From an uncultured bacterium (GTDB lineage: Bacteria > Joyebacterota > Joyebacteria > Joyebacterales > Joyebacteraceae), in assembly GCA_964487295.1 (NCBI GenBank), contig CAZAQL010000001.1, forward strand, positions 13,091 through 77,090: 64,000 nucleotides of DNA, given 5' to 3'. Both the position numbers and the translations under genes were made by a program. Shown here piece after piece: positions 4,318 to 48,360 of the stretch (the stretch's first letter is position 1; every line of letters begins with the position of its first letter). A model generated the notes under the pieces. It saw nothing but the letters and a program-made list of their open reading frames with translations. It searched no databases and was not told the DNA's origin.

Positions 4318-4800
4318 ATGAGGGCATTGATCCTGGGGCTCGGAGATCCGGGTCTTGCGGGAGAGCGGGTCGGACTCGAGGTGGCGCGGGAGCTCCATTC
4401 CACGCTGGATGATCCCGAGGTCGACATCATCGAGACGAGGGTCTCGGGAATCGACCTGTTCGAGATCGTCGCCGGGTACGACAAGGTCGTCATCGTCGAC
4501 TGCGTCCGAACGGGCGAGGGCGGTTTCGGGGAACTCTGCCGTCTCGGGCTCGACGACCTCGAGCTGGTTCCGAAACGGAAGGCCGATCACGGCGTGGAGT
4601 ACAGAGCCAAGATAGAGATCGACGGCGTCTCCGACCTGGCCATGCCGGGCGAGATCTCCGTCTATGCCATCGAGGTGACCGACGACGTCGCCGATGGCCC
4701 GGATCTGAAACCTGTCGCGCGCGAGGCGGTTCTCAGGCTCGTCGATGAGATCGCACGCGAGGAGTTCGGCGGCAGGATGCGAGAAAGCGGGTGGTACTGA
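4318..4800 (+). CDS. hydrogenase maturation (C-terminal processing) protease, HycI/HyaD family
   Basis: 160 aa. The N-terminus MRALILGLGDPGLAGERVGLEV matches the conserved LvlGiGN..gDdGvG signature of this protease family. GAGG-like RBS upstream. The longer track ORF 3643..4800 is an antisense read-through of the flavoprotein gene. Confidence 0.7.
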   Translation: MRALILGLGDPGLAGERVGLEVARELHSTLDDPEVDIIETRVSGIDLFEIVAGYDKVVIVDCVRTGEGGFGELCRLGLDDLELVPKRKADHGVEYRAKIEIDGVSDLAMPGEISVYAIEVTDDVADGPDLKPVAREAVLRLVDEIAREEFGGRMRESGWY

Positions 4801-6215: not shown

Positions 6216-6243
6216 GCACGGGCGGCCGCCCGGCCGCCCGTGC
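6216..6243 (+). terminator. GC-rich hairpin downstream of malic enzyme (11-bp stem, no U tract)
   Basis: GCACGGGCGGC / GCCGCCCGTGC perfect inverted repeat with a 6-nt loop, 24 nt after the stop. Confidence 0.4.
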
Positions 6244-6266
6244 GGTCTCGGAATCCCGGGTTCCGC

Positions 6267-6866
6267 ATGACTGAAGAGCTGCATCCTACCGACACCGAGC
6301 TCGTGACCGCCGCGAAGAACGGCGACAATGAGGCCTTCGGCCAACTCGTCGAGCGGCACGAGGCGAACGTCTACGGTCTCTGTCTCAAGATGCTCAAGAA
6401 CCCCGAGGACGCCGAGGACTGCCTCCAGGAGGTCTTCGTCAAGGCGTACAAGGCGCTTCCCGGTTTTCGCGAGGAGGCGCGGTTCTCCACCTGGATCTAC
6501 CGGATCGCGACCAATGCCGCCCTCATGCGCATCCGCAAGAAGAAGCTCGATACGGTGTCCCTCGACCAGCCGGTCGAGCTCGGAGAGACGAAGGTCCCGC
6601 GCGAGGTCGCGGACTGGACCACCGATCCCTCGACCAACGTCATGAACGATGAGCTCTCCGCCGTGCTCACTCAGCACATCAACGACCTTCCGCCCAACAA
6701 CAGGATCGTGTTCGTGCTCCGGGACGTGCACGGTCTCTCGACCGACGAGACGGCCGGCGTGCTCGGGCTGACCGCCCCGGCGGTCAAGTCGAGGCTGCAC
6801 CGGGCCAGGCTGTTTTTGCGCGAGCGCCTGTCGGAGTACTACGCTCGTGGAGGGCCCCCCGCGTGA
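6267..6866 (+). CDS. RNA polymerase ECF sigma factor (sigma-70 family, regions 2 and 4)
   Basis: Region 2 (FGQLVERHEANVYGLCLKML..EDCLQEVFVKAY..FSTWIYRIATN) and region 4 (RIVFVLRDVHGLSTDETAGVLGLTAPAVKSRLHRAR). ORF open from GTG 6240; ATG 6267 chosen as start. Confidence 0.8.
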   Translation: MTEELHPTDTELVTAAKNGDNEAFGQLVERHEANVYGLCLKMLKNPEDAEDCLQEVFVKAYKALPGFREEARFSTWIYRIATNAALMRIRKKKLDTVSLDQPVELGETKVPREVADWTTDPSTNVMNDELSAVLTQHINDLPPNNRIVFVLRDVHGLSTDETAGVLGLTAPAVKSRLHRARLFLRERLSEYYARGGPPA

Positions 6867-11723: not shown

Positions 11724-13526
11724 ATGAGCAACGGGTCGGAAGCAGACTCGGGCCGCCCGGCGGGCGACCCCGTGAACAGCGGTCGGGAGGACGGGACCGA
11801 CGCCAGGGAGGCGGGCTCCACCATCCGGGGCATTCCGGTGTCGCCGGGCGTCGTTCATGGCCCGGTGATGCTGTTCGGCGACATTCTCGACGAGGTCGAG
11901 ACTCGCGTCATCCAACCGTCGGAGGTCGACGCTGAGATCGAGCGGCTCCGCGAGGCCATCAGGCTCGTGAAGGAGGAGCTGGCGCGGGACGCCGAACGCA
12001 TCTCCGGTCAGCTCGGCCAGAGCGAGGCCGACATCTTCCTCGTTCACACGATGATCCTTGAGGACAAGAAGCTCGTCGAGGAGATCGAGGAGCGCATTCG
12101 CACCGAGCTCATCAACGCCGATGCCGTCGTCGCCCAGGAGATGAAGCGGGTCAGTGGCGTGCTCCGCGCGTCGGATGATGCCTATCTCATGGACCGTTCG
12201 TACGATGTCACCGACATCGGGAAGCGCGTGATCGAGCGCATGCTCGGGGTCTGGGCGCACTGTCCCCTGACTCACCCGATGATCATCGTCGCGCGCGAGC
12301 TTCGGGCGTCGGACACGGTGTCGATGGACCGCGGGAGAGTCCTCGGCTTCGTCACCGAGATGGGCGGCCGGCAGGCGCACGCGGCGATCCTGGCGCGCTC
12401 GCTGGGCGTGCCGGCGATCGTGGGGGCGCACGGGATCGTGGACCGGGTACGCTCCGGCGACACGCTCGCCGTCGACGGCTCGACGGGCGAGGTCCTGATC
12501 AACCCGTCGACCGACGTCCTCGCCCGGTACATGCAGAAGCAGGAGCAGGAGGCACTCGACTGGGCCGCGCTGGCGCCGTATCGCGAGGCGGTAACGCGGA
12601 CGGCCGATGGGACCCGCATCGAGCTCATGGCCAACATCAGCACGCCGGAGGAGTCGGTGGCGGCCACCGCTCTCGCCGTCGACGGTGTCGGACTGTTCCG
12701 GACCGAGATCCCGTTCATCGAGGCCGGTTTCTATCTGAGTGAGGACGCGCAGTACGCGGTCTACCGGAAGGCCGTCGAGGGCGTGGGCCGGGGCCCCCTG
12801 ACGATCCGGACGCTCGATGTGGGCGGCGACAAGTTCATAGGTCGCGAGAATCCTCTCGCGGAGCACAATCCGCACCTGGGGTACCGGTCGATCCGCGTGT
12901 CGCTCGACCACCCCGACGTCTTCCTCGAGCAGCTGCGCGCGATCCTGCGGGCCGGCGCGCATGGCGAGGTCAGACTGCTTCTTCCCATGGTGTCGGGAAT
13001 GGGGGAACTCCGCGCGGCACGGGATTTGCTCGATCAGGCGCGGGCATCGCTCGCGAAGGACGGAGTGCCGCACGCTCCGAACGTGCCGGTCGGGGTGATG
13101 ATCGAGATCCCCTCGGCCGTGATGGTCGCCGACCGGCTCGCGGCCGAGAGCGACTTCCTGAGCATCGGAACGAACGACCTGGTTCAGTACGCGCTGGCCG
13201 TCGATCGAGGGAACACGTACGTCGACCATCTCTATCGGCCGTACGACCCCGCCGTGCTCGCGCTCATCGACCGGACCGTGCGCGCGGCGCGGGACGCCGG
13301 CAAGCCGGTCGCGGTCTGCGGGGAGATGGCCGGCGTGACCGAGTACATCCCCCTGCTGCTCGGCCTCGGGGTGCGCGAGTTCTCGGTCGCCATGAGCAGG
13401 ATCCTCTTCGCGAGACGCGCGATCGCTCTGACCGACCTTGCCGAGGCTGAAGCCCTCGCCGCCCGGGCGCTCGGCGCCTCGACGGCGGCCGAGGTCGCCC
13501 TGGAACTCGGCATCAAGGGAGCATGA
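11724..13526 (+). CDS. ptsI: phosphoenolpyruvate-protein phosphotransferase (PTS enzyme I)
   Basis: Phosphohistidine region GGRQAHAAILARSLGVPAIVG. PEP-utilizing TIM barrel (IRTLDVGGDKF, SIGTNDLVQYALAVDR, CGEMAG). ~40-aa disordered N-terminal extension. GGAGG upstream of ATG 11724. Confidence 0.8.
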   Translation: MSNGSEADSGRPAGDPVNSGREDGTDAREAGSTIRGIPVSPGVVHGPVMLFGDILDEVETRVIQPSEVDAEIERLREAIRLVKEELARDAERISGQLGQSEADIFLVHTMILEDKKLVEEIEERIRTELINADAVVAQEMKRVSGVLRASDDAYLMDRSYDVTDIGKRVIERMLGVWAHCPLTHPMIIVARELRASDTVSMDRGRVLGFVTEMGGRQAHAAILARSLGVPAIVGAHGIVDRVRSGDTLAVDGSTGEVLINPSTDVLARYMQKQEQEALDWAALAPYREAVTRTADGTRIELMANISTPEESVAATALAVDGVGLFRTEIPFIEAGFYLSEDAQYAVYRKAVEGVGRGPLTIRTLDVGGDKFIGRENPLAEHNPHLGYRSIRVSLDHPDVFLEQLRAILRAGAHGEVRLLLPMVSGMGELRAARDLLDQARASLAKDGVPHAPNVPVGVMIEIPSAVMVADRLAAESDFLSIGTNDLVQYALAVDRGNTYVDHLYRPYDPAVLALIDRTVRAARDAGKPVAVCGEMAGVTEYIPLLLGLGVREFSVAMSRILFARRAIALTDLAEAEALAARALGASTAAEVALELGIKGA

Positions 13527-15921
13527 ACTGAACTACCGGATTCGTACAGACACCCTTCGGACAGCGCTTGTCGCGACCGTCGCGCTGGTCCTGGCGCTCG
13601 GGGCGTCCGAGGCGGACGCACGCTGGCGTGCGACCGCCGACTCCCTCTACGCGGTGGCCGAGCTCCATTACCAGGGGTCTGACTTCGTCACCGCGGCGCG
13701 TCTCTATGGAGACATCACGGTCCTCCTCGACGAGCAGGAGGAGGCCGGGCTCGGATCGTACTTCGAGAAGCTCGGCGCCCGGGCCGCCTTCCTCAAGGCG
13801 CGGGCGTTCGAACGGGCGGGAGACTGGGAGCAGGCGGAGAAGGCATACGCCTCGGCGCTCCCCCTGATGCGGCCCATCGGCGACGCCGTCAACTTCCGCA
13901 TGGCCGTCTGCCGGCTCGAGCAGGACGACCTCGAGGGCGCGACATCGCTCCTGCGCGCGATCGTCGAGGACGGCGAGGAGACCTCGTTCGACGAACGGGC
14001 GGTCGAGGCGCTCGGCGACGCGCACCGCCGCTTCTCGGAGTGGGACCTGGCCATCCAGTGGTATCGCCTGCTGCTGGCAAGGGCGCCATCCTACGACGAG
14101 CAGGCGCGAATCCACACCAGCATCGGGATGACGCACGAGGCTCGCGGCGACCGCGAGACCGCGATGCGCAGCTACGCCAGGGTCGTTGACGAGTTCCCCC
14201 GCTCGCGGCACGCGCACGATGCGATGAAGGAGGCCAGGAAGCTCTCTCGCTCATTCACCGATCGCTACCACCAGGGTCTTGTCCTCTACAACCGGAGGCT
14301 CTACGCCGACGCCGCCGAGTTCTTCGAGCACTACATCAGAAACGACGACGATGCGACATGGCGGCTCGAGGCTACCTACTACCTCGGACGCGCGAACCAG
14401 CGGCTCGGACGATACGATGCCGCCGCGAAGCACTACGCGGCCGCGATCGCTATCGGCGAGGGCGACGGGGGCGGAGACGGTACGGCGACGCCCGACAGCG
14501 AGGAGTACCATCTCGCCTGGCAGCGCCTCGCCTACGCGCGGCGCGTGCTGGGAGACGCCCAGGCCTGCCTGTGCACGTACGACGACTACGTGGCGAGGCA
14601 CCCGTCCGCCGACCACGCCGCAGACGTGCTCTGGGAGAAGGCGCGCTTCCTCGAGGACGAGAAGCGATGGGACGAGGCCGCGGAGGTCTTCGCCCTGCTC
14701 GCGGAGCGCTATCCGCATACGGAGAGGGCCGGTGACGCGCGATTCCGACGTGGGCTCGTGCTCTACAAGAACGGCGACCGCGAGGCCGCCGAGGCGGCGT
14801 TCACGCGCGACGCGTCCGTCGCGCGCGGGGAGGACCTCGCCCGCGCCGCCTACTGGCTCGGGAAGACCCGCGAGGCGCTCGGCCATCGGCGCCAGCCGCT
14901 CGTCGACTACCGGCGGGCCCGCGAGAGCGCGCCGGACTCGTACTACGGAAGACGGGCGTCGGAGAGCCTCGTGCGACTCGGGGTCGTGGATCCGGCGCCG
15001 GAGCGGGACCCTTCCACGGCCGCGCTCCGCAGGGCGCGCGTTCGCCCGGCCTGGGCGAACGGACCGGGCCGTGACTACGGCGCGTGGCTCGCCACGTGGG
15101 CCGAGCGCACCTACGTCCCGATCGAGTACATCGCCGTCCGGGAGCGGCTCATGGCGGACCGGTGGTTCGTCAGGGCCGACCATCTGCGCGCCGTCCACAT
15201 GGACGAGAACGCGGAGGAGGAGTTCTCACGGCTGGAAGAGAGCACGGCGTCGGATCCCACGATGCTCTCCATGCTCGTGGACTACTACGAGCGTTCGGGG
15301 CTCAACCGCCGCGGCATCCGCCTCGCCGAGCGCATCCTGCGCATGTCTCCCGTCGAGAACGCGAGTGAGGCGCCGGTGTATCTCGCCGAGCGCATCTTCC
15401 CACGGCATTTCGAGGACGTCGTCGAGCCCGAGTGCTTCGAGCGCGGGGTCGACGCGAACCTCTACTACGGGCTGATGCGGCAGGAGAGCGTCTTCGAGTC
15501 CGACGCGGTCTCGTGGGTGGGGGCGCGAGGGCTCTCGCAGATCATGCCCGCGACAGGCCGGTGGATCGCACGTCGTATCGATCACGGGCGGTTCCGGCTG
15601 GATCACCTCATGGACCCCTCGACGAACATCCGCTTCGGCGCGTACTACCTCGCCGAGCAGCTCGCTGAGTTCCAGGGCGATCCCCTCAGGGCACTCGCGG
15701 CCTACAACGGGGGACCGCGCAACGTCCCGCGGTGGTGGGGATACGGTGGGTGCGACGACGTTGACGTGTTCGTGGAGGACATCGGATACGCCGAGACCTC
15801 GGACTACGTGCGTCGCGTCTACGCCTACTGGCGTCTGTACGAGGAGATCTACGGGCGTTCTCCGGCGCCGGCGGCCGCAACCCCGTCATTCCGACCGGCG
15901 TCCGCCGCTTCGTCATCCTGA
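13438..15921 (+). CDS. TPR-repeat protein with C-terminal SLT-family lytic transglycosylase domain (secreted)
   Basis: SLT domain GLMRQESVFESDAVSWVGARGLSQIMPATG..IRFGAYYLAEQL..AYNGGP. Signal-like TALVATVALVLALGASEADA. The only ATG/GTG/TTG upstream of the signal peptide is ATG 13438, which overlaps ptsI by 89 nt, so the start is uncertain. Confidence 0.7.
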   Translation: MPRLKPSPPGRSAPRRRPRSPWNSASREHELNYRIRTDTLRTALVATVALVLALGASEADARWRATADSLYAVAELHYQGSDFVTAARLYGDITVLLDEQEEAGLGSYFEKLGARAAFLKARAFERAGDWEQAEKAYASALPLMRPIGDAVNFRMAVCRLEQDDLEGATSLLRAIVEDGEETSFDERAVEALGDAHRRFSEWDLAIQWYRLLLARAPSYDEQARIHTSIGMTHEARGDRETAMRSYARVVDEFPRSRHAHDAMKEARKLSRSFTDRYHQGLVLYNRRLYADAAEFFEHYIRNDDDATWRLEATYYLGRANQRLGRYDAAAKHYAAAIAIGEGDGGGDGTATPDSEEYHLAWQRLAYARRVLGDAQACLCTYDDYVARHPSADHAADVLWEKARFLEDEKRWDEAAEVFALLAERYPHTERAGDARFRRGLVLYKNGDREAAEAAFTRDASVARGEDLARAAYWLGKTREALGHRRQPLVDYRRARESAPDSYYGRRASESLVRLGVVDPAPERDPSTAALRRARVRPAWANGPGRDYGAWLATWAERTYVPIEYIAVRERLMADRWFVRADHLRAVHMDENAEEEFSRLEESTASDPTMLSMLVDYYERSGLNRRGIRLAERILRMSPVENASEAPVYLAERIFPRHFEDVVEPECFERGVDANLYYGLMRQESVFESDAVSWVGARGLSQIMPATGRWIARRIDHGRFRLDHLMDPSTNIRFGAYYLAEQLAEFQGDPLRALAAYNGGPRNVPRWWGYGGCDDVDVFVEDIGYAETSDYVRRVYAYWRLYEEIYGRSPAPAAATPSFRPASAASSS

Positions 15922-16493
15922 CCGGCGTCCGCTACCCTGTCGTCCTGACCGGCGTCCGCCACCCCATCGTCCTGACCGGCGTCCGCCACCCCATCGTCCT
16001 GACCGGCGTCCGCCGGGGATGTGACCGTTCGATCCGCCCAATCCTCCACTTCGAGGATCACGTCAGCGTCGTTTTTCGTCTGCGTCGCCAGCACGTAGGC
16101 CCAGTTCGCGGCCACCGCGACGAGCACGACGGCCCAGGCGACGAGACGCTCCCGTCGCGAGAGCGTCACGCGCAACACGGCGCCGCGGGCGAGCCTGGCG
16201 ACGCCCAGCACAGCGGCCGCGGGGATCACGACGAGGATGATCAGCGCATCGAGCGGGTTGGTCCTCAGAGCGAGCCCTGGGTGGCCCCTCAGTACGGCGC
16301 CGGTGCCTCGCAGAAATCCACACGTGGGACAGGGAAGACCTGTCAGTCTGCGAAAGAGGCAGATGACGGGACCGTCCCAGTGCGCGGTAGAGAGCGCGGC
16401 GAAGAGCCCGAACGCCAGGATGAGCAGGGCCGCCGCGACCGCGAGTCGGGGTGGCCGCGGTGCGCCGTTAATGCGTTCGAGTCGGATCCTCAC
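15849..16493 (-). CDS. DUF2752-like membrane protein (CPTCG motif) with repetitive acidic C-terminal tail
   Basis: GLPCPTCGFLRGTGAVLRG followed by TM helices. GTG start. The tail ADAGQDDGV x4 is encoded by the 27-bp tandem repeat. The 3' end overlaps the convergent SLT gene by ~70 nt. Confidence 0.6.
   Translation of the reverse strand: MRIRLERINGAPRPPRLAVAAALLILAFGLFAALSTAHWDGPVICLFRRLTGLPCPTCGFLRGTGAVLRGHPGLALRTNPLDALIILVVIPAAAVLGVARLARGAVLRVTLSRRERLVAWAVVLVAVAANWAYVLATQTKNDADVILEVEDWADRTVTSPADAGQDDGVADAGQDDGVADAGQDDRVADAGQDDEAADAGRNDGVAAAGAGERP
15917..16018. repeat. 27-bp tandem repeat x ~4 (CCTGACCGGCGTCCGCCACCCCATCGT)
   Basis: Direct tandem copies seen at 15917-15943, 15944-15970, 15971-15997 and a partial copy at 15998-16018. 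The array spans the stop of the SLT gene. On the minus strand it encodes ADAGQDDGV x4. Confidence 0.85.
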
Positions 16494-23334: not shown

Positions 23335-23375
23335 AGAGCAGCGTGTGAATACCCCATCGCACGCCCCGTCTAAGG

Positions 23376-24023
23376 ATGCTGCGAGAGACCATGCCTGAGC
23401 GCGATCCCAGGGAGATCGACCTCGAGAAGGTCCGTGCCAGTCAGGCCGGGGACCACGAGGCATTCGATTTCCTCATCGACAAGTACAAGGATGTCGTCTA
23501 CGCGGTCGCGTACCGGTTCGCGCACGACCAGGATCTTGCGATGGACCTGGCGCAGGACACGTTCATCCGCGCGTACAAGGGCATCAAGAGCTTCAAGGGA
23601 AGATCCAGTTTCTCGACGTGGCTCTACCGGATCGCGATGAACACGTGTATCGACTACACGAGGAAGCACTCGCGTTCCGTCGCGTCTCAGGCAGTGCCGG
23701 AGGAGGTCGCGGAGTACGCCGACAGCGAGCCGATCGGCAGGAAGCCCGACAGGGGGCCGGCGAGACGGGTCCTCACGAGGGAGCTCGGCGAGCAGATCCA
23801 GCGGGCGGTCGACGCGCTGCCCGAGTACCACCGGTCGGTGTTCGTGCTCTACGAGATCGAGGGGATGTCATACAAGGAGATCGCGGACGTCGTCGGTTGC
23901 TCGATCGGCACGGTGATGTCGCGACTTCACTACGCAAGGAAGAAGCTGCGCGTGATGCTCGAACCCTATGTGGATGGCGGTATCGACGTCGGCGCGGCGG
24001 ACGGGGAGAGCGGGAAGAACTGA
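23376..24023 (+). CDS. RNA polymerase ECF sigma factor (RpoE-like)
   Basis: Region 2 DLAQDTFIRAYKGIKSF..FSTWLYRIAMN and region 4 SVFVLYEIEGMSYKEIADVVGCSIGTVMSRLHYARKKL. Confidence 0.8.
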   Translation: MLRETMPERDPREIDLEKVRASQAGDHEAFDFLIDKYKDVVYAVAYRFAHDQDLAMDLAQDTFIRAYKGIKSFKGRSSFSTWLYRIAMNTCIDYTRKHSRSVASQAVPEEVAEYADSEPIGRKPDRGPARRVLTRELGEQIQRAVDALPEYHRSVFVLYEIEGMSYKEIADVVGCSIGTVMSRLHYARKKLRVMLEPYVDGGIDVGAADGESGKN

Positions 24024-24028
24024 CAGCT

Positions 24029-24577
24029 ATGAGCAAGCCCTGCAGACTGGAGAAGCACCTGACGGCCTACGCGGACGGCGAGCTCTCGCCGCGCCGGCGG
24101 AGACAGGTCGAGCGTCATCTCGAGTCGTGCGCCGCGTGTTCGCGCGAACTTGACTCGATCCTCGCCTTTGATAGAATCCTCACTGAGGCTCCGTCCGTTC
24201 CCGACGTCACGCCGGAGAAGTGGGAACGGTTCGGAAGGCTCCTTTCGCAGGAGATGGACCGGATCGACAGGGCGGCGGCCCGGACCCCGCGGGTGCGTGA
24301 GGCCCGTCCGGTCTTCGCGGACCTCAGGCGCCGCGCGATCGCCTTCGCGGGAGTCGCCGTGGCCGCTGCGATCGCGGTCTTCGCGTTCTGGCCGACGGCC
24401 GTCGCGCCGATAGGCCTCTCCGCGAACAACGCGTGCAGCGTCGAGAGCCTCGAGACCTACGGAAGCGGCTATACCCCCATGGCATTCACCTCGAACGACC
24501 CTGAGATGACCGTCATCTGGGTGTTCTCCGAGGACGCTGAGGCGGGGGGAAGGGGCGAGACGCCGGGATCGATCTAG
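24029..24577 (+). CDS. membrane-anchored zf-HC2 anti-sigma factor
   Basis: Begins 5 nt after the sigma stop. HLESCAACSREL zinc-finger motif followed by a TM helix IAFAGVAVAAAIAVFAFW. Confidence 0.65.
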   Translation: MSKPCRLEKHLTAYADGELSPRRRRQVERHLESCAACSRELDSILAFDRILTEAPSVPDVTPEKWERFGRLLSQEMDRIDRAAARTPRVREARPVFADLRRRAIAFAGVAVAAAIAVFAFWPTAVAPIGLSANNACSVESLETYGSGYTPMAFTSNDPEMTVIWVFSEDAEAGGRGETPGSI

Positions 24578-24647
24578 GCGAGGGGTTCCGCTCCGGGTGT
24601 GGTATCATCGAGAGTGGAATGGGTTTCGTGACGCGGGTCGGAGACGT

Positions 24648-25169
24648 ATGAGACGAACTGTCATCACGTGCGTTGTCGTGCTTGCCGTGGCGCTTCTGTT
24701 CGCGCCGGGCCGCGCGGCCGCGGAAGAGGTGACGATCCAGGTGACCTCGATCGCGGCCGCGTCCCTTTCCGGGGCGCAGCTCGGCGACGCTGAGGCCCGG
24801 ATCGACGAGGAACTCTCCGCCTACGCGCAGAAGCTCCAGGCGCTCTTCGCCTACAACAGCTACACATTCCTCGGTGACGTCAGGACGCGGATGGACTTCG
24901 GTTCGGCAGAGCGCCTCCAGTTGCCGGAGCACTTCGCCATGGAGGTCGAGCCGACGCGGTTCGACCGCGAAGGCGCAGGGCGGATCGAGATGATGGTGAC
25001 CCTGCTCCGCGACGTCAGGACGGAGGGCGCGAGTGGCCAGCGCGGTCACCCCCGGGACGAGATCGTCCTGCGAACGCGGATCCGCCTGGAGAACGGCGGG
25101 ACCGTGCTGCTCGGAGGTCCTCCGATCGGCGGAGGCGTGCTGATCCTGGCGCTCTCCGCGAGACGGTAG
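24648..25169 (+). CDS. hypothetical secreted protein
   Basis: Signal peptide MRRTVITCVVVLAVALLFAPGRAAA. GGAG upstream. No recognised domain. Confidence 0.5.
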   Translation: MRRTVITCVVVLAVALLFAPGRAAAEEVTIQVTSIAAASLSGAQLGDAEARIDEELSAYAQKLQALFAYNSYTFLGDVRTRMDFGSAERLQLPEHFAMEVEPTRFDREGAGRIEMMVTLLRDVRTEGASGQRGHPRDEIVLRTRIRLENGGTVLLGGPPIGGGVLILALSARR

Positions 25170-25219
25170 TTCCCGACCCGCGATGATGCGAGAACCCGGA
25201 GGCTCTCCGGTGCAGTTGT

Positions 25220-25249
25220 GAGGAGGCTGTCGCGCGCGGCAGCCTCCTC
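25220..25249 (+). terminator. hairpin (10-bp perfect stem GAGGAGGCTG/CAGCCTCCTC, 10-nt loop) after 24648..25169
   Basis: Seen directly in the sequence. No U tract follows; it is immediately followed by the 53-bp tandem repeats. Confidence 0.4.
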
Positions 25250-25375
25250 GCTTATCCGGGCTCCGTCCGGCGGGGTTGCCGGGGAAAGGCGGAGCCGCCG
25301 TCGCTTATCCGGGTTCAGTCCGGCGAGGTTGCCGGGCAGAGGCGGAGCCGCCCCCGCTTATCCGGGCTCAGTTCA
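25250..25375. repeat. 53-bp tandem repeat x 2.4
   Basis: GCTTATCCGGGCTCCGTCCGGCGGGGTTGCCGGGGAAAGGCGGAGCCGCCGTC at 25250-25302. A near-identical copy at 25303-25355. A partial third copy from 25356. Confidence 0.85.
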
Positions 25376-25443
25376 CCCGTTCGTGAATAGCCATTCTTCC
25401 CCTCCCGTCATATCACTCGCAGACCCGACGGACCGGTCCCTGG

Positions 25444-26973
25444 ATGACGCAGGGAGGCCGTCACGAAAGGGGAGGTGAGATCCCTATGATGCGAATGATC
25501 AGTCGGAGACGGTTCCTGGCCGCGTGCAGCGCGCGGCGGCCGGCTCACGGCCGGCGAGCACGCGTCGCCAGCCGCCGTGAAGTCCTCGGTCTCGGGCGGC
25601 TGATGCACTGGGCCGCGGCCGTGGCCGTTCTTCTCACGCTCCTCGTCCTCGCGGCGACCTCGCAGGCGGCGACCGTCGCGAAGGAGGAGGCCGTCCCGGA
25701 CGACGGCTCCGCGGAGCCGCGTCCCGTTCCGGACTCGGAGATCACGGAGCGGGTCATCGTCGACCCGGAGCCGAACTGGGGCGACTGGGGTGACATCGAC
25801 GACTCGTTCTACCACTACCACCCGGGTGGCCTCAGGATCGACACGTGGGTCGACCGCGGCGAGTGGGCGACGTACGAGCCCGGCGACAGGCTCTGGGTGT
25901 ACTTCCGGGTCAACAAGCCGTGCTATGTGACGATCCTCGACTACACGACCGACGGCCGCGTCGAGACCATCTACCCGAACCGCTGGTCCGGGGCGAGGAT
26001 GGCATACCCGGGTCGCGTCTACCGCGTCCCCGACGACGGTCGCTTCTCGCTTCGAATCGCTGGGCCGGAGGGCATCGAAACGCTCGTAGCCTGCGCTCAC
26101 GAGCTCCCCTGGCCCAGCGGGCACACCGGTTCATGGACGCCACGGTACCATCGCTGGATCGAGCCCCGATCGAGGACCTACGTCGCCCCGTGGGGCGTCC
26201 CGCCGGGCCGCGTGATACGCGGCAGTGATCGATCAACCCCGGCGCCGCGCTCGGCGCCCGAAGGACGTGTCGTGCCCGGGGAAGGCGGACGGGTCGCGCC
26301 CCAGAGCGATCAAGAGGGTCGCGTGATAGTGGGCGGAGACTCCCGTCGTGACGGCCGCGTCATCGTCGGAGGAGACTCCCGCGGGGGCCGCCGGGTCGTC
26401 TGGGGCCCGCCGCGAGGCCGCGTGGTCGTCGGACCGGACTGGTGGCCCGTCCCGGAACCATGGCACACCTCGCCGGGGCGCTGGGCCTGCGACTCCGTGA
26501 CCTTCCGGGTCGCGAGCAGGTACGGTGACGACTGGGGCGGCGACTGGTGGTACGGCGGGGACTCTCAGGACGACTGGGGAGATGACGACTGGTACGGCGA
26601 CGGCTACGGTCGTCCGCTCATGCACGAGCGCTTCCGGATGAGCACTCCGCGGGATTCCATGCACGAGACCTTCCGCTTCGACGACGAGCGCGTGCACGTC
26701 AGGATCGACTGCGTGGCGGACCGCAAGAACGACCCGACGGAGATCGTCGGACGGATCGGGTGGTTCGGAGGCTGGGGAGACGAGACGATCTTCCGCATCG
26801 ATGTGAGTGGAAGAAACGGCATCGTCCCGCGTGAGGGAGACGTCTACACGGCCTTCACCGGACCCATCCGTGTTGATGTCGAGGTCGTCGACCTCCGTCT
26901 TGCCCGGGTGAGGCCGTGGCAGCTTCCGAGGATCGAGTGGATCAAGTTCGAGGTGAAGGCATACGCACGTTAG
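25444..26973 (+). CDS. secreted DUF4384-like domain protein with GRV(I/V)VGGDSR repeats and a Trp/Asp-rich segment
   Basis: DRLWVYFRVNKPCYVTILDYTTDGRVETIYPN resembles DUF4384. Tandem peptide repeats GRVVPGEGGRVAPQ/GRVIVGGDSRRDGRVIVGGDSRGGRRVV. Segment DWGGDWWYGGDSQDDWGDDDWYGDGYG. Start uncertain: a TAT-like RRRFLAA and a later hydrophobic signal are both present. Confidence 0.55.
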   Translation: MTQGGRHERGGEIPMMRMISRRRFLAACSARRPAHGRRARVASRREVLGLGRLMHWAAAVAVLLTLLVLAATSQAATVAKEEAVPDDGSAEPRPVPDSEITERVIVDPEPNWGDWGDIDDSFYHYHPGGLRIDTWVDRGEWATYEPGDRLWVYFRVNKPCYVTILDYTTDGRVETIYPNRWSGARMAYPGRVYRVPDDGRFSLRIAGPEGIETLVACAHELPWPSGHTGSWTPRYHRWIEPRSRTYVAPWGVPPGRVIRGSDRSTPAPRSAPEGRVVPGEGGRVAPQSDQEGRVIVGGDSRRDGRVIVGGDSRGGRRVVWGPPRGRVVVGPDWWPVPEPWHTSPGRWACDSVTFRVASRYGDDWGGDWWYGGDSQDDWGDDDWYGDGYGRPLMHERFRMSTPRDSMHETFRFDDERVHVRIDCVADRKNDPTEIVGRIGWFGGWGDETIFRIDVSGRNGIVPREGDVYTAFTGPIRVDVEVVDLRLARVRPWQLPRIEWIKFEVKAYAR

Positions 26974-27049
26974 CTGCACCCCGCCTTGCGCGGCGGGAGG
27001 GGACCACGAGCGACCCGCGCTCAAGCGGGTCCGGGAAGGAGGTCCTGTG

Positions 27050-27601
27050 ATGCGACGGAGAGAGCCTGTGGTGATGTCATCGATCGTGCGTCGGGCGGCG
27101 CTGGTGGCGACGCTTGCCGTCGCGGTCTCGCTGTCCGGTTGTATCGTCTGTCCGTGGTGCTGGGAGTGCGATGACCGTCCACCCCGGATGGCGATGATCT
27201 ACGTGCACGTGAGCGACTACTACACGGGAGCGCCGATCAGCTGGGCTGCGGCCGACCTCTACGAGTCCGACTGGTGGGAGTGGGACTTCATCGGGACGTG
27301 GGAGGTGAACGGCTCCGGTCGGGCGACACTCTACGGCGGGTACCTCTACGACGAAGGTGACGGTCCCGAGGAGGAGGACTTCAAGGTCGTCGTGTATGCG
27401 TCGGGATACGAGACGCTCGACTACACGCTCGAGCTCGATTTCTGGCATCCCACCGAGACGCTCCACTTCTACCTCTTGCCCTACTACGCAAGGGAGGGCG
27501 AGGAGCCTGATGTGAGCGGCGAGAATGAACCCGGGGAGGACGGTCCGGACGGGCCGCGGGTTCTCGTTGGTGAACCGCGGGAGGGCCTTCCAACGCGATA
27601 G
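27050..27601 (+). CDS. small lipoprotein with CxxCxxCxxC motif immediately after the lipobox
   Basis: AAGGAGG lies 7 nt before ATG 27050. Signal peptide ..LAVAVSLSGC, then CIVCPWCWEC. W/Y/E-rich mature part. Confidence 0.55.
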   Translation: MRRREPVVMSSIVRRAALVATLAVAVSLSGCIVCPWCWECDDRPPRMAMIYVHVSDYYTGAPISWAAADLYESDWWEWDFIGTWEVNGSGRATLYGGYLYDEGDGPEEEDFKVVVYASGYETLDYTLELDFWHPTETLHFYLLPYYAREGEEPDVSGENEPGEDGPDGPRVLVGEPREGLPTR

Positions 27602-28759: not shown

Positions 28760-28920
28760 CGCCGGTGACGCCGCCGGTGCAAGTGCGGTGACGCCGCCGG
28801 TGCGAGTGCGTTGAGACCGGCTGTGGGAGTACGGTGAAACCGCCGGTGCAAGTGCGGTGACGCCGCCGGCGCGAGTGCGGTGAGACCGGCTGTGGCAGTG
28901 CGGTGACGCCGCCGGCGCGA
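28760..28920. repeat. ~23-bp tandem array x 7 with two alternating unit types (GTGCGGTGACGCCGCCGGYGCRA / GTGCGKTGAGACCGGCTGTGGSA)
   Basis: Units at 28783, 28806, 28829, 28852, 28875, 28898 plus a partial at 28760. Lies between the divergent GT-B gene and the 29013 gene. Confidence 0.85.
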
Positions 28921-29012
28921 GGACGTTGGTGCGGGCCCGCTGTTGAGTCGGGCGCAGCGTAGGTGTAGACTGCGTGTGTCCTTCCACGGAAACGCGAGCG
29001 ACGGAGGTGCGC

Positions 29013-33390: not shown

Positions 33391-33459
33391 CCTGCCTCCT
33401 GGCGGCCATATCGGCTGCAAAGCCTGCCCACCAGCGCATCGCCGCCGGGGCGGCGCCGG

Positions 33460-33514
33460 ACCATCGCCGGGCCATCGCCGGGCCATCGTCGGGCCATCGC
33501 CGGGCCATCGTCGG
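33460..33514. repeat. 11-bp tandem repeat x 5 (GCCATCGYCGG)
   Basis: Five contiguous copies immediately upstream of the M14 gene promoter. Confidence 0.85.
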
Positions 33515-33535
33515 GCCGCGCTGAGGGGTCCCTCA

Positions 33536-38902: not shown

Positions 38903-38985
38903 CCTGGACGGCGATTCCACTCCTTTGGCACGCCGCGCTGTGTCCCCTGGTTGGCCCGCTCCGCCGCTTCTCAGGCGCCGCTCCT

Positions 38986-39119
38986 CCGGAGCCATCCGGG
39001 GCGGGCGGCGTCTTGTCGCATTCGCGGCGAGCCCGTCAGAGCGGTCGGTGCCTCGTCGCATTCCCGGCGAACCCGTCTGGGCGGCTGGCACCTCGATGTG
39101 CCCACCCGGAGCCATCCGG
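38986..39119. repeat. composite repeat: two identical 14-bp palindromes (CCGGAGCCATCCGG) flanking a 40-bp direct repeat pair
   Basis: Palindromes at 38986-38999 and 39106-39119. Direct repeats GTCGCATTCGCGGCGAGCCCGTCAGAGCGGTCGGTGCCTC (39014-39053) and GTCGCATTCCCGGCGAACCCGTCTGGGCGGCTGGCACCTC (39055-39094). Confidence 0.8.
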
Positions 39120-39368
39120 ATCGAGCGTCGTTCCGTCTCTTCCCGCGGAATGACTGTCCCTCGGAAAGTTCTTGCGTCACCATTCAATTTTCGTTAGGAT
39201 ACTCATGAAGGCCCAAGCCGTGGTCGATTGTGGCTGAATCGAGTGTCAGTCGGGTACGATCACACGCGTCCTCACGGAGGATTCGAGAGCCCCCCCCGGT
39301 AGCGAACGCCGGAGGTCGGGGGCTGCCCCCCTCAGGATTCCGCGGCTTGCCGCTCCGTGAGGGTCGCA

Positions 39369-45488: not shown

Positions 45489-47021
45489 CTAGCGTTCCCA
45501 CAGAAACGCGGTTGATGTCACATAGACCGCGCCGCGGCGCGACTTGGACTCACCCGGTGATGACGCCTCATGCGCGCCGACGACGAGCTCAAGCCAGCGA
45601 TCGCCGTCCGTGTCGATCGCGGCGACCGAACTCGCGACCGCGTCGCCGGGCGCGCCCACCAGAACGCCGTCGGCGTCCTCGGCGGTTCCGCGCTTCGCGC
45701 GCATCACGGACCGCAGGCTCCCCTTGTAGAGATACACCTCGCCCGACCGCTTTCGTTCGCCACCCATCCCGTTGACGAACTGTCCCGCCACGGCGATGTC
45801 GTCGAAGCCGTCCCCGTTGAGATCGACGATCATCGGGGCGAGTCCGAAGATGTCCCACTGGGAGCGCCCGACGAACGTGACGATGCGGTCGCTCGGCTCC
45901 TCCGGGTCCAGGGCGGTCCCGAGAGTGCCGGACAGAGCATCGATGCCGCTTCCCGGGTCGCCGAAGACGAGATGCGCTGATCCGCGGGAGACGTGCCTGT
46001 CGCCCTCCATCCCGGAGGTGTGAGATGAGATGACAGCGTCCGTCGCTCCGTCGCCGTCGACATCGCCGACGGCGATCGCGTAGCCGAGGAGACCGCGCTC
46101 GTCGGCGCCGGTGAGGCGCGCGATCGCGACGTCGGCGATCGTGGACGGACCGTTCGCGAGCGCCGACGCGGGAACGACGTAGACGGCGCCCACGTCCTCG
46201 ACCAGGCCGCCGTCCGCTCGCTCGGCGTCGAACTGGTGCGCGCCGATGAGAAGCTCAGGGAAACCGTCACCATCAACGTCTCCCGTGCGGACCGTTCTGA
46301 TCGATTCGCCCGACACCGACCCGACGATACGCGTCCGCATCGAGATGTGCGTCGCGTCGTGGTCCACGCCCGGCTCGAGCAGGCCGGTGTCGACGGCGTA
46401 GACGGCGCCGACGTCCGGCAGGGCGCCGCTGTCGTGTCCGGGTGCCGAGACGATGAGCTCGTCCCGGCCGTCACCGTCGATATCACAGGATGCGAGCGAG
46501 GCTCCGAAGGAGTCGCCGTTGCCCGCTCCGGTCATCGTCGCCACCACCGAGCACGACGCGTCGGTCGAGTCGCGTGGCTCCAGGATGAACACGCGGCCGT
46601 TGCGGATGCCGCCTGGAGAGCCGAACTCGGGAGCGCCGACGACGATCTCGTCGTCGCCGTCCGCGTCGATGTCCAGAAAGAGGATCGAGGATCCGAAGCG
46701 CGAGGTCGGGTCGCCCTCCCGGACGAGGAAGGCGGCGTCGGACGCGGCATCATCCGTGGTTCGACCGATGGCGTCGGCGGCGAGCACGTAGACGGCGCCC
46801 GCGTGGCCGGCGGCGCCCGGTGCTCCGACGGCGAGCTCGGGCGAGCCGTCCCCGTCGGTGTCGCCGACGGCGAGGCTCCATCCGAACTCGTCTCCGGGCG
46901 CGTCACCGCGGATGACGACGCCCGGCGGCAACGCCAGATCGACGGGCTCCGCGCCGCGGAGGCCGCCCGCGGCCGGCAGAGAGAGCGCGACGAGGGCGGC
47001 GAGGAGGATCCGTGCGGGCAT
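45489..47021 (-). CDS. secreted FG-GAP repeat (integrin-alpha-like beta-propeller) protein
   Basis: Signal peptide MPARILLAALVALSLPAAG. At least 7 repeats of the D-x-D/N-G-D-G..(A/G)AP.. type (DTDGDGSPELAVGAP, DIDADGDDEIVVGAP, CDIDGDGRDELIVSAP, GDVDGDGFPELLIGA, GDVDGDGATDAVIS, VDLNGDGFDDIAVAG, IDTDGDRWLELVVGA). Confidence 0.75.
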   Translation of the reverse strand: MPARILLAALVALSLPAAGGLRGAEPVDLALPPGVVIRGDAPGDEFGWSLAVGDTDGDGSPELAVGAPGAAGHAGAVYVLAADAIGRTTDDAASDAAFLVREGDPTSRFGSSILFLDIDADGDDEIVVGAPEFGSPGGIRNGRVFILEPRDSTDASCSVVATMTGAGNGDSFGASLASCDIDGDGRDELIVSAPGHDSGALPDVGAVYAVDTGLLEPGVDHDATHISMRTRIVGSVSGESIRTVRTGDVDGDGFPELLIGAHQFDAERADGGLVEDVGAVYVVPASALANGPSTIADVAIARLTGADERGLLGYAIAVGDVDGDGATDAVISSHTSGMEGDRHVSRGSAHLVFGDPGSGIDALSGTLGTALDPEEPSDRIVTFVGRSQWDIFGLAPMIVDLNGDGFDDIAVAGQFVNGMGGERKRSGEVYLYKGSLRSVMRAKRGTAEDADGVLVGAPGDAVASSVAAIDTDGDRWLELVVGAHEASSPGESKSRRGAVYVTSTAFLWER

Positions 47022-47339: not shown

Positions 47340-48239
47340 GTGACGATGACCGTGACAGGCTATTCAAGGACGCGCCCGGCGCGCGCGGGAGAGGGTGCTG
47401 CCCGGAGCGGCCCGGCGCGCGAGGGAGACGGCGATACCCGGACCGGCCCGGCTCGCGCGGAAGCGAGCCGCACGGCGCCCCGGCGCCGGCGCCGCGCAGT
47501 GGGTGCGGCGGCGACTTGCGTCGGGCTCGCGGCGCTCGGTCTTGCGCTCCTCGGTCCGTTGCCGGTTCGAGCGGCGGAGCCTCTGTCGAGTGCGGAGCTC
47601 GCCGAGCTTCTGGAGCGCTACAATTCGTTCGTCAGACACGAGCGCTGTCTGATCGAGACGCTTCGCGTGGTCCAGACCATGGTGGATCCGCAGGAGGACG
47701 GCTCGGAGCGGACCGCGGTCGCCGAACTCACGTACATCGCCGGCAGCGGTATGGTCCGCGACGTACTCTCCTCGGACCTGGCCCATCCTGAGGGTGACTA
47801 CACGCTGGACAGCGTGATCGGACCCGAGCTTCCAGGCGGGGAGTACGACATCGAGCCCGTCGGCCGCGACACGGTGGACGGCGAGTCCGCGTTCCACCTG
47901 CGTGTGACCGCGCTCGACCGAGACAGGGATCACTTCGACGGCGAGATCTGGATATCCGAGATGGACGCCTCGCCCGTCCGCGTCCGGGGACGCGTCGCCG
48001 ACCCGCCCTTTCCCGTGGTCCTCATCACCTTCGACAAGCGGTTCGAGCGGCTCGCGCCGCAAGACGTTCGTGGCGAGGAGTGCCCGACCGCTCTCCGACT
48101 GCTCCGGCGTCACTCCGGCGAGGCCGAGGTGAACCTGCTGCTCGGGAGGAAGCGCGGGCAGCGTCACATCTTCTACGACGACTACGTCGTGAGGGTTCGA
48201 CCTCCGGACGGCGGGCCGACCGGAAGCACAGCCGATTGA
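47340..48239 (+). CDS. hypothetical secreted protein (Arg-rich TAT-like leader)
   Basis: GTG 47340 lies 8 nt after GGAGG; ATG 47346 is also in frame. Leader ..RRRRRAVGAAATCVGLAALGLALLGPLPVRAA. The mature part has ordinary globular composition. The antisense ORF 47364..48626 is R-rich junk. Confidence 0.5.
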   Translation: MTMTVTGYSRTRPARAGEGAARSGPAREGDGDTRTGPARAEASRTAPRRRRRAVGAAATCVGLAALGLALLGPLPVRAAEPLSSAELAELLERYNSFVRHERCLIETLRVVQTMVDPQEDGSERTAVAELTYIAGSGMVRDVLSSDLAHPEGDYTLDSVIGPELPGGEYDIEPVGRDTVDGESAFHLRVTALDRDRDHFDGEIWISEMDASPVRVRGRVADPPFPVVLITFDKRFERLAPQDVRGEECPTALRLLRRHSGEAEVNLLLGRKRGQRHIFYDDYVVRVRPPDGGPTGSTAD

Positions 48240-48263
48240 GGGATGTCCGCCGCCGGCGGGCAG

Positions 48264-48360
48264 GCATGGGGAGTCCGTCGCCGGCGGGTACGCATGGGGA
48301 GTCCGCCGCCGGCGGGTGCGCATGGCGAGTCCGCTGCCGGCGAGTTCGCATGCGGTCGGG
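48264..48360. repeat. 28-bp tandem repeat x ~3.5 (GCATGGGGAGTCCGCCGCCGGCGGGTGC)
   Basis: Units at 48264-48291, 48292-48319 and 48320-48347, a degenerate fourth copy, and a partial copy starting at the stop codon (48237) of the upstream gene. Confidence 0.85.

Follow-up and report, generated by a model that had tools for sequence, protein, structure and literature searches.

A 53-bp tandem array beside an ECF-type promoter of an uncultured bacterium: a probable lineage-specific duplication next to a conserved sigma factor module

Is a tandem array that lies directly in front of a promoter a regulatory element, or something that the locus merely tolerates? The question is raised by a 64,000-nucleotide stretch of DNA from an uncultured bacterium (GenBank assembly GCA_964487295.1, contig CAZAQL010000001.1, positions 13,091 to 77,090 of the forward strand), in the following called the window. 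In it, a 53-bp tandem array lies between the genes of an extracytoplasmic function (ECF) sigma factor system and the gene of a DUF4384-domain envelope protein. A first-pass annotation suggested that the array could act as an iterated binding site or a slippage-prone switch, unless its unit was a dispersed repeat of the REP (repetitive extragenic palindromic) kind. Comparison of the locus with its relatives shows the array not to be REP-like and demonstrates no regulatory role for it, and it places the surrounding module, as a new and well-conserved member, among the ECF sigma / anti-sigma systems. The array is ordinary, and showing so clears away a false lead. What the comparison of the module adds, for a phylum without cultured members, is annotation that can be put to the test: TGAATA-N15-CGTCTAA as the consensus of the promoters, a correction to where the sigma gene starts and an ECF module of two operons.

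The array is located at 25236..25372 on the + strand, where Tandem Repeats Finder (TRF) gives a period of 53, 2.6 copies, 86% matches and a score of 198. When the window was shuffled 50 times with its dinucleotides preserved, no array scored above 84, and the array is for that reason not a chance match. It had first been described as 2.4 copies at 25250-25375, following a hairpin; the array is real, but it begins inside the 3' arm of that hairpin. It consists of a partial copy that belongs to this arm (25236-25249), two full units (25250-25302 and 25303-25355) and a last partial copy of 17 nt (25356-25372). The register of the repeat is set within the arm, where GCGGCAGCCTCCTC can be aligned to the GCGGAGCCGCCGTC that closes each unit. 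The two full units are 87-89% identical, with 6-7 mismatches over 53 positions, and the 21-nt head of the unit occurs three times at a spacing of 53 nt. The earlier placement of the array in a promoter region is borne out, as it abuts a conserved ECF-type promoter, here called P2 (25377..25412, + strand), with a CGTTCG flank, a -35 TGAATA (25384-25389), a 16-nt spacer and a -10 CGTCATA (25406-25412). The array ends 4 nt before the CGTTCG flank, 11 nt before the -35 and 113 nt before the start of the DUF4384 gene; the last distance had been given as about 70 nt, and is corrected since the gene starts at 25486 and not at 25444.

Orthologous loci were collected by a genome scan (27 loci, L001-L027) and by protein look-ups (L028-L033), and the array and its spacer were compared in 30 distinct loci, all of them in metagenome-assembled genomes (MAGs) of the Eisenbacteria type. 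The 53-bp unit was not found in any of the 30, while both promoters of the module and the hairpin are conserved, which argues against an iterated binding site as well as a slippage switch. In an alignment of the five closest intergenic regions the conserved blocks are a small hairpin, the large hairpin and the promoter with its CGTTCG flank. Between the large hairpin and the promoter lies the sole hypervariable segment, and it is precisely this one that the array fills. From the stop codon of the gene upstream to the -35 of P2 there are 70-243 nt in the 30 loci (median 127.5), and 13 of them fall at 106-119 nt. The same distance in the window is 214 nt, or 108 + 2 x 53, and with the two extra units removed it returns to the ancestral spacing, which is the modal one. 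In L028, the closest relative, the hairpin is followed by TTTGGGATCCGGGTGGTTCGTGAATAGCC, with just TTTGGGATCCGGGTGGTTCG between hairpin and -35, and the ATCCGGG of this spacer is also found at the start of the 53-bp unit of the window, a resemblance that suggests a single-copy ancestor. Other lineages have unrelated sequence in the same gap or small duplications of their own, such as 16 bp x 2.1 in L002 and 15 bp x 2.3 in L024, and the gap of L003 holds a local duplication that resembles the -35 flank. A degenerate -35 inside the unit of the window was also considered, and was rejected when no convincing similarity could be seen by eye.

Of the fairly close relatives L007 and L008, one has an insertion of some 105 nt relative to the other (around positions 4620-4730 of each locus), placed exactly between the T-run of the terminator and the -35 of P2 and flanked by GTTTGTG/GTTCGTG. 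It is a sign that the junction between hairpin and P2 is a hotspot for insertion or duplication.

The most reasonable explanation, and one that we consider likely, is that the array is a lineage-specific duplication, formed by slippage or template switching and seeded by the hairpin, at a place where a spacer of any length is tolerated. Such an event would have put two extra 53-bp units into an ancestral spacer of about 110 nt; the hairpin is proposed as the seed because the repeat register starts in its 3' arm. The array would then be neutral, probably without any sequence-specific function, and at most it shifts the terminator away from the promoter. In this it is similar to the minisatellite or VNTR (variable number of tandem repeats) duplications of bacterial intergenic regions, which also have a few imperfect copies of a unit of some tens of bp and are lineage-specific and not conserved. 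Unlike those, the array has its anchor in a terminator hairpin, within the 3' arm, and stops 11 nt from a -35, and the density of arrays in its host, seven in 64 kb, is unusually high.

The unit is GC-rich and contains hairpins, as could be expected of a dispersed REP-like or MITE-like (miniature inverted-repeat transposable element) repeat that had landed at this place. A search with both halves of the unit found no further copy in the 64-kb window at three mismatches or fewer, and the 21-base degenerate core of the unit had no exact match in the metagenome collection. The register that begins in the local hairpin, together with the likeness between the start of the unit and the single-copy spacer of L028, points to a local origin, and we regard the chance of a dispersed element as close to nil. 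Almost as improbable is that the array was created by the assembly. It is well known that repeats can cause misassembly in MAGs built from short reads, but the copies differ at 6-7 positions and are thus not collapsed or duplicated identical reads. The contig also carries six other arrays with different units, and arrays of a similar kind are present in relatives that were assembled independently.

A tandem repeat close to a promoter brings to mind the contingency loci of Neisseria and Haemophilus, where the copy number could switch expression, in this case of the DUF4384 operon. The repeats of such loci have short, near-perfect units, and the spacing or the reading frame changes with their number. 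In the present array the units are 53 bp long and 11-13% diverged, and 6-7 mismatches between such units strongly disfavour frequent slippage. The array is also outside both the open reading frames (ORFs) and the spacer between -35 and -10, and its copy number would alter neither the frame nor the geometry of the promoter. One relative seen in three samples (L029-L031) has identical spacers in all of them, although that species is without the array. A contingency repeat is for these reasons very unlikely, if somewhat less so than an artefact.

A cis-regulatory role, in which the units bind a regulator or work as an upstream element on P2, is easier to imagine, although we still find it unlikely. 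The array lies directly upstream of the -35, the -10 extension of P2 is unique and off consensus and might need help, and submotifs with CCGG can be read in the sequence of the unit about 11-12 nt apart. Moreover, a second array abuts another match to the promoter motif, TGAATAGCC-N15-CGTC at 47342-47366 on the - strand. Against this stands that the array is missing from the 30 orthologous loci, where hairpin and P2 are separated by 22-135 nt of unrelated sequence. The unit recurs neither elsewhere in the window nor in the metagenome collection, and it is found neither at the orthologous promoters nor at others of the window, as an iteron-like site would be. There is no sigma-70-like or ECF-like promoter inside the units, they are GC-rich unlike UP elements, the module encodes no DNA-binding regulator besides the sigma factor, and the site at 47342-47366 is below the threshold of the position weight matrix (PWM) that we built for the promoter.

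This third motif match precedes an FG-GAP repeat gene (45489-47021, - strand) by 320 nt, and the 36-bp array at 47374-47460 runs straight into its -35. It has a poor -10 extension (CGTCACG) and a leader of 320 nt, and a metagenome scan for orthologues of the FG-GAP protein found only proteins of 33% identity or less. We take it as a weak lead.

Some observations weigh against a neutral duplication beside a terminated operon, and have to be set against the comparisons above. Activator sites and UP elements occupy the position just upstream of the -35, and an array with its end 11 nt from the -35 and 4 nt from the CGTTCG flank may by its place have an effect on P2. The -10 of P2, CGTCATA, is the sole outlier in comparison with CGTC[TAG][AG]A, which holds for all 50 promoter instances from L001-L027, and this outlier, with its 16-nt spacer, falls in the very genome that bears the array; the divergence could mean that promoter and array have evolved together. 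Two arrays that abut the same motif hint at a non-random link between arrays and motif. The collections searched yielded no close strain, the nearest relative having only 77% protein identity, and the large hairpin is without a proper U-tract, so that termination at this point can only be presumed.

The hairpin in question (25218..25251, + strand) is GC-rich and terminator-like, and would close the sigma operon. RNAfold gives it a 15-bp stem (25218-25232/25237-25251) with two G-U pairs and a CGCG loop, and with a z-score of -3.6 it was more stable than all of its shuffles (0/200 equally stable). The perfect 10-bp stem that had been noted at 25220-25249 is correct and forms its core (25220-25229/25240-25249), within the longer full stem. 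The stem is followed by GCUUAUCC, a weak U tail, and not by the U-rich tract of an intrinsic terminator; a scan with consensus sequences for sigma-70 promoters and terminators made no calls in 25170-25485. An orthologous hairpin whose base changes preserve the pairing is present in L001 (z -4.7) and L004 (z -6.0) as well as in L002, L003 and L028-L033. In more distant loci the hairpins are of other kinds, with T-runs behind them.

With such a tail some read-through is plausible, and the array could then be part of the transcript of the sigma operon, lengthening its 3' end, and act at the level of RNA, as a series of mini-terminators, an insulator against read-through into P2 or a structured 3' untranslated region (UTR). 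Every unit closes with a small GGCG-GAGC-CGCC hairpin and the GCUUAUCC tail of the main hairpin, and the region 25170-25383 folds somewhat better than its shuffles (z -2.5). That z-score is, however, carried by the main hairpin, and the individual units fold like shuffles (z -0.09 and -0.69). Rfam has nothing for the array region at E<=10 and no match in the window at the gathering threshold, and the relatives do without the array. A function in the RNA is accordingly improbable, to about the same degree as a cis-regulatory one.

A second and smaller hairpin, CCGGAG-GCT-CTCCGG (25196..25210, + strand), has a sequence that is conserved in close and mid-distance relatives. It appears as the invariant block CCGGAGGCTCTCCGG in the alignment of the five closest loci, and is also found in L005-L009, L018 and L028-L033. 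In the RNA (CCGGAG-GCU-CUCCGG) it sits between the stop codon of the secreted-protein gene and the main hairpin, and its sequence, with the loop included, is kept down to about 56% protein identity, which is beyond the needs of a simple stem.

Around the array, the order of six genes is conserved: a phosphomannomutase-like gene (PMM), the ECF sigma factor, a zf-HC2 anti-sigma factor, a secreted protein of 173 aa, the DUF4384 protein and a lipoprotein of 184 aa. A tblastn search with the proteins of the window found the identical order in all 27 loci of the genome scan, as far as each of them extends, and the same synteny is seen in L028-L033. The secreted protein has 166 homologues, and all those with a taxonomic label belong to Candidatus Eisenbacteria, the remaining ones being nameless or labelled merely 'bacterium'; 77% identity is that of the nearest non-self homologue. 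We therefore think it likely that the region is a conserved envelope-signalling module of the Eisenbacteria, with two transcription units. The first would be formed by sigma, anti-sigma and the secreted secretin-fold protein, driven by a promoter P1 and closed at the strong GC-rich hairpin. The second would be the DUF4384 protein and the lipoprotein, driven by P2.

P1 (23346..23373, + strand) has its -35 TGAATA at 23346-23351, a 15-nt spacer and the -10 CGTCTAA at 23367-23373. The motif is found directly upstream of sigma in 23/23 loci that reach that far, at a fixed distance from the start codon. In the same way, the P2 motif TGAATA-N15/16-CGTC(T/A/G)(A/G)A lies between the genes of the secreted protein and the DUF4384 protein in 27/27 loci, and both sites are also present in L028, L029, L032 and L033. 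The PWM was built on 50 instances of P1 and P2 from L001-L027; TGAATA and CGTC are invariant among them, CGTCTAA(G) is preferred, and the spacer between the two blocks is 15 nt (rarely 16), fixed in length and not conserved in sequence. There are three matches to TGAATA-N14-18-CGTC in the window, against 0.16 expected, and none in 325 kb of unrelated metagenome loci, of which the + strand was scanned. P1 scores 33.8 with the PWM, compared with a shuffle maximum of 15.8. The score of P2 is 15.5, with a -10 extension that deviates from the consensus CGTCTAA.

ECF promoters have a -35 tgaAAC, a -10 CGTC or CGTA and a spacer of 14-17 (PMC5758882). The two-block architecture of TGAATA and CGTC at P1 and P2 fits this class. 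As it is usual for an ECF sigma factor to regulate its own gene and to be encoded together with its targets (PMC7826278), P1, which lies in front of the sigma gene in the 23/23 loci and in four more, is probably the autoregulatory promoter of sigma, and the sigma factor would most likely recognise it and give positive autoregulation. P2 is a second copy of the same promoter type, and for that reason we infer that it is used by the same sigma as promoter of the DUF4384-lipoprotein operon, and that the second unit is the local regulon of the sigma factor. The DUF4384 protein and the lipoprotein would then be a local regulon within a defined two-operon module.

The sigma factor (23391..24023, + strand) is an ECF protein of 210 aa, similar to RpoE, AlgU and SigW. 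The ORF 23376-24023, which had been taken as the sigma gene, is supported by Pfam with Sigma70_r2 (E 7e-23), Sigma70_r4_2 (E 7e-18) and Sigma70_ECF, and with 129.7 bits it passes the cut-off of 42.9 for the NCBIfam model sigma70-ECF TIGR02937. With sigma-2 and sigma-4 domains only and a length of about 200 aa it belongs to the ECF sigma factors (group 4), and its matches in the PDB are AlgU, sigma-E and SigW. It scores 165.5 bits with the RpoE equivalog TIGR02939 (cut-off 236) and 128.7 bits with the SigW equivalog TIGR02948 (cut-off 243), and by these sequence models it is related to both and a member of neither. Its start had to be moved. The longest ORF begins with the ATG at 23376, at or before the predicted start of transcription from P1, whose -10 ends at 23373, 3 nt ahead of that ATG. 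All orthologues keep GCGAGGG-N3/4-ATGCC at the start of sigma, with ...GCGAGGGnnnATGCC in common, and public gene calls give a sigma of 210 aa, in agreement with a start at 23391 (MPERDP...). Because the -10 of P1 abuts the first ATG and the orthologues conserve the GCGAGGG-N3/4-ATGCC block, the true start is almost certainly the ATG at 23391.

The anti-sigma factor (24029..24577, + strand), whose earlier description as a zf-HC2 membrane protein agrees with our results, is a single-pass membrane protein with an N-terminal zf-HC2 domain (PF13490, E 1.8e-11, residues 8-37). Its translation has HxxxCxxC as H-LES-C-AA-C, which places it with the ZAS (zinc-binding anti-sigma) / zf-HC2 proteins, and one hydrophobic helix, AIAFAGVAVAAAIAVFAFW. 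The cognate anti-sigma lies directly downstream of sigma in all orthologous loci. The two genes had been described as translationally coupled; they are indeed adjacent, with a gap of 5 nt between stop and start, but the reading frames do not overlap. The window has another ECF sigma factor (6240-6866), which is 34% identical to the present one, and the TGAATA/CGTC motif was not found upstream of it.

The third gene of the module (24648..25169, + strand) encodes, as was first read from the sequence, a small secreted protein. It is 173 aa long, rich in beta structure, has a signal peptide and a mature form of about 145 residues, and is conserved in the module. Neither Pfam nor NCBIfam has a match for it, and a search with its profile against the PDB sequences found none either. 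It has the fold of the Secretin C-domain. The sequence signature of that family, PF00263, does not match the protein of the window, and is matched only weakly by 15/29 family members (best E 0.0035), which is too weak to count. With about 145 mature residues and no N domains, the protein is without the N-terminal ring that belongs to the multimeric outer-membrane channel of a secretin. It differs from GspD, PilQ, InvG and pIV, moreover, in lacking domains N0-N3, in remaining below the Pfam threshold and without any match to a PDB chain, and in being encoded with an ECF sigma and anti-sigma factor and not with a secretion system.

A profile search in 1.84 billion representatives found 347 relatives of this protein, nearly all of 140-220 aa. 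Two longer relatives, which are independent proteins, each consist of an ECF sigma factor that a hydrophobic helix joins to the domain of the 173-aa protein, and two distant stand-alone relatives overlap an upstream zf-HC2 gene by 4 nt. It thus seems that ECF / zf-HC2 modules repeatedly include this protein as a third component, whose function would be comparable to that of RseB/MucB while its structure is different. Because of the narrow size range, the two fusions and the two overlaps, we also put forward, more tentatively and as a possibility we would not bet on, that it is a minimal stand-alone secretin-fold domain and the obligate third component of widespread ECF / zf-HC2 modules. It could by analogy be a sensor partner in the periplasm or outer membrane, or a small pore whose state of assembly is monitored; its output in the Eisenbacteria would be the two products controlled by P2, the DUF4384 protein and the lipoprotein, and the array would be incidental. 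We found no paper in the literature that links DUF4384 or secretin-like proteins to ECF systems, and none on tandem repeats in Eisenbacteria. A previously unannotated family of small secretin-fold proteins travels with pairs of ECF sigma and anti-sigma factors, and if the link is real it is a new type of component for ECF envelope signalling, and the first regulatory context for DUF4384.

The order of genes is that of RpoE-RseA-RseB in E. coli and AlgU-MucA-MucB in Pseudomonas, with an RpoE/AlgU-like sigma followed by a single-pass membrane anti-sigma and a secreted protein, and with a promoter of its own upstream of sigma, as expected for autoregulation. It departs from them in that the anti-sigma is zf-HC2 (ZAS-like) and not RseA_N, and in that the third protein has a secretin fold and not the LolA-like one of RseB/MucB. 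The target operon (DUF4384 and lipoprotein) is adjacent here, the -35 is TGAATA and not GGAACTT, and the equivalog models for RpoE, SigW and the anti-sigma factors all score under their cut-offs. The promoters of sigma-W, -X, -M and -V in Bacillus subtilis (tgaAAC-N16/17-CGT(A/C)) share the two blocks, the CGTC -10, an A-rich -35 and a spacer within 14-17, as well as an autoregulatory copy before the sigma gene (PMC5758882), though recognition is here a prediction. They differ in the core of the -35, which is GAATA here and not AAC, in the extension of the -10 to CGTCTAA(G), and in the phylum, which here is an uncultured one.

The DUF4384-domain envelope protein (25486..26973, + strand; Pfam PF14326, E 1e-17) has its start set by the conserved GGAGGTGAnnCCnATG, with the Shine-Dalgarno sequence GGAGGTG and an ATG, and according to tblastn the gene is syntenic in all loci that extend that far. 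Its N-terminus (25486-25600) has a twin-arginine-like SRRRFLAA about 40 residues before a hydrophobic segment, and the N-terminal extension varies among relatives. The predicted 5' UTR contains a tentative stem-loop (25427..25462, + strand; GACGGACC ... GGCCGUC), with a minimum free energy fold of z -2.2, and other clades have analogous stems with different sequences. An alignment of 22 of these 5' UTRs with MAFFT and RNAalifold gave no consensus structure, and the z-scores of single sequences are mildly negative (mean -0.6, several of the UTRs being incomplete). Downstream lies the gene of the predicted lipoprotein (27047..27601, + strand; 184 aa, lipobox LSGC), which has no match in Pfam or NCBIfam and was found by tblastn downstream of DUF4384 in 25/25 loci reaching that far. 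The window contains no tRNA genes.

Altogether seven arrays with unrelated units are found in the window, with TRF scores of 108-264, compared with the shuffle maximum of 84. One, with a 27-bp unit (15868-16014), starts in the last 54 nt of the ORF 13438-15921 and continues downstream of it. The others, besides the 53-bp array, are intergenic, with units of 23/69 bp (28763-28921), 11 bp (33443-33517), 40 bp (39001-39095), 36 bp (2.4 copies, 47374-47460) and 28 bp (48240-48352). Related Eisenbacteria loci carry unrelated intergenic arrays at different positions, and a density of seven per 64 kb looks like a habit of the genome, so that the density of intergenic arrays may merit a genome-wide survey. 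The 40-bp array is bracketed on both sides by a 14-bp direct repeat, CCGGAGCCATCCGG (38985-39120), which suggests a larger duplication event.

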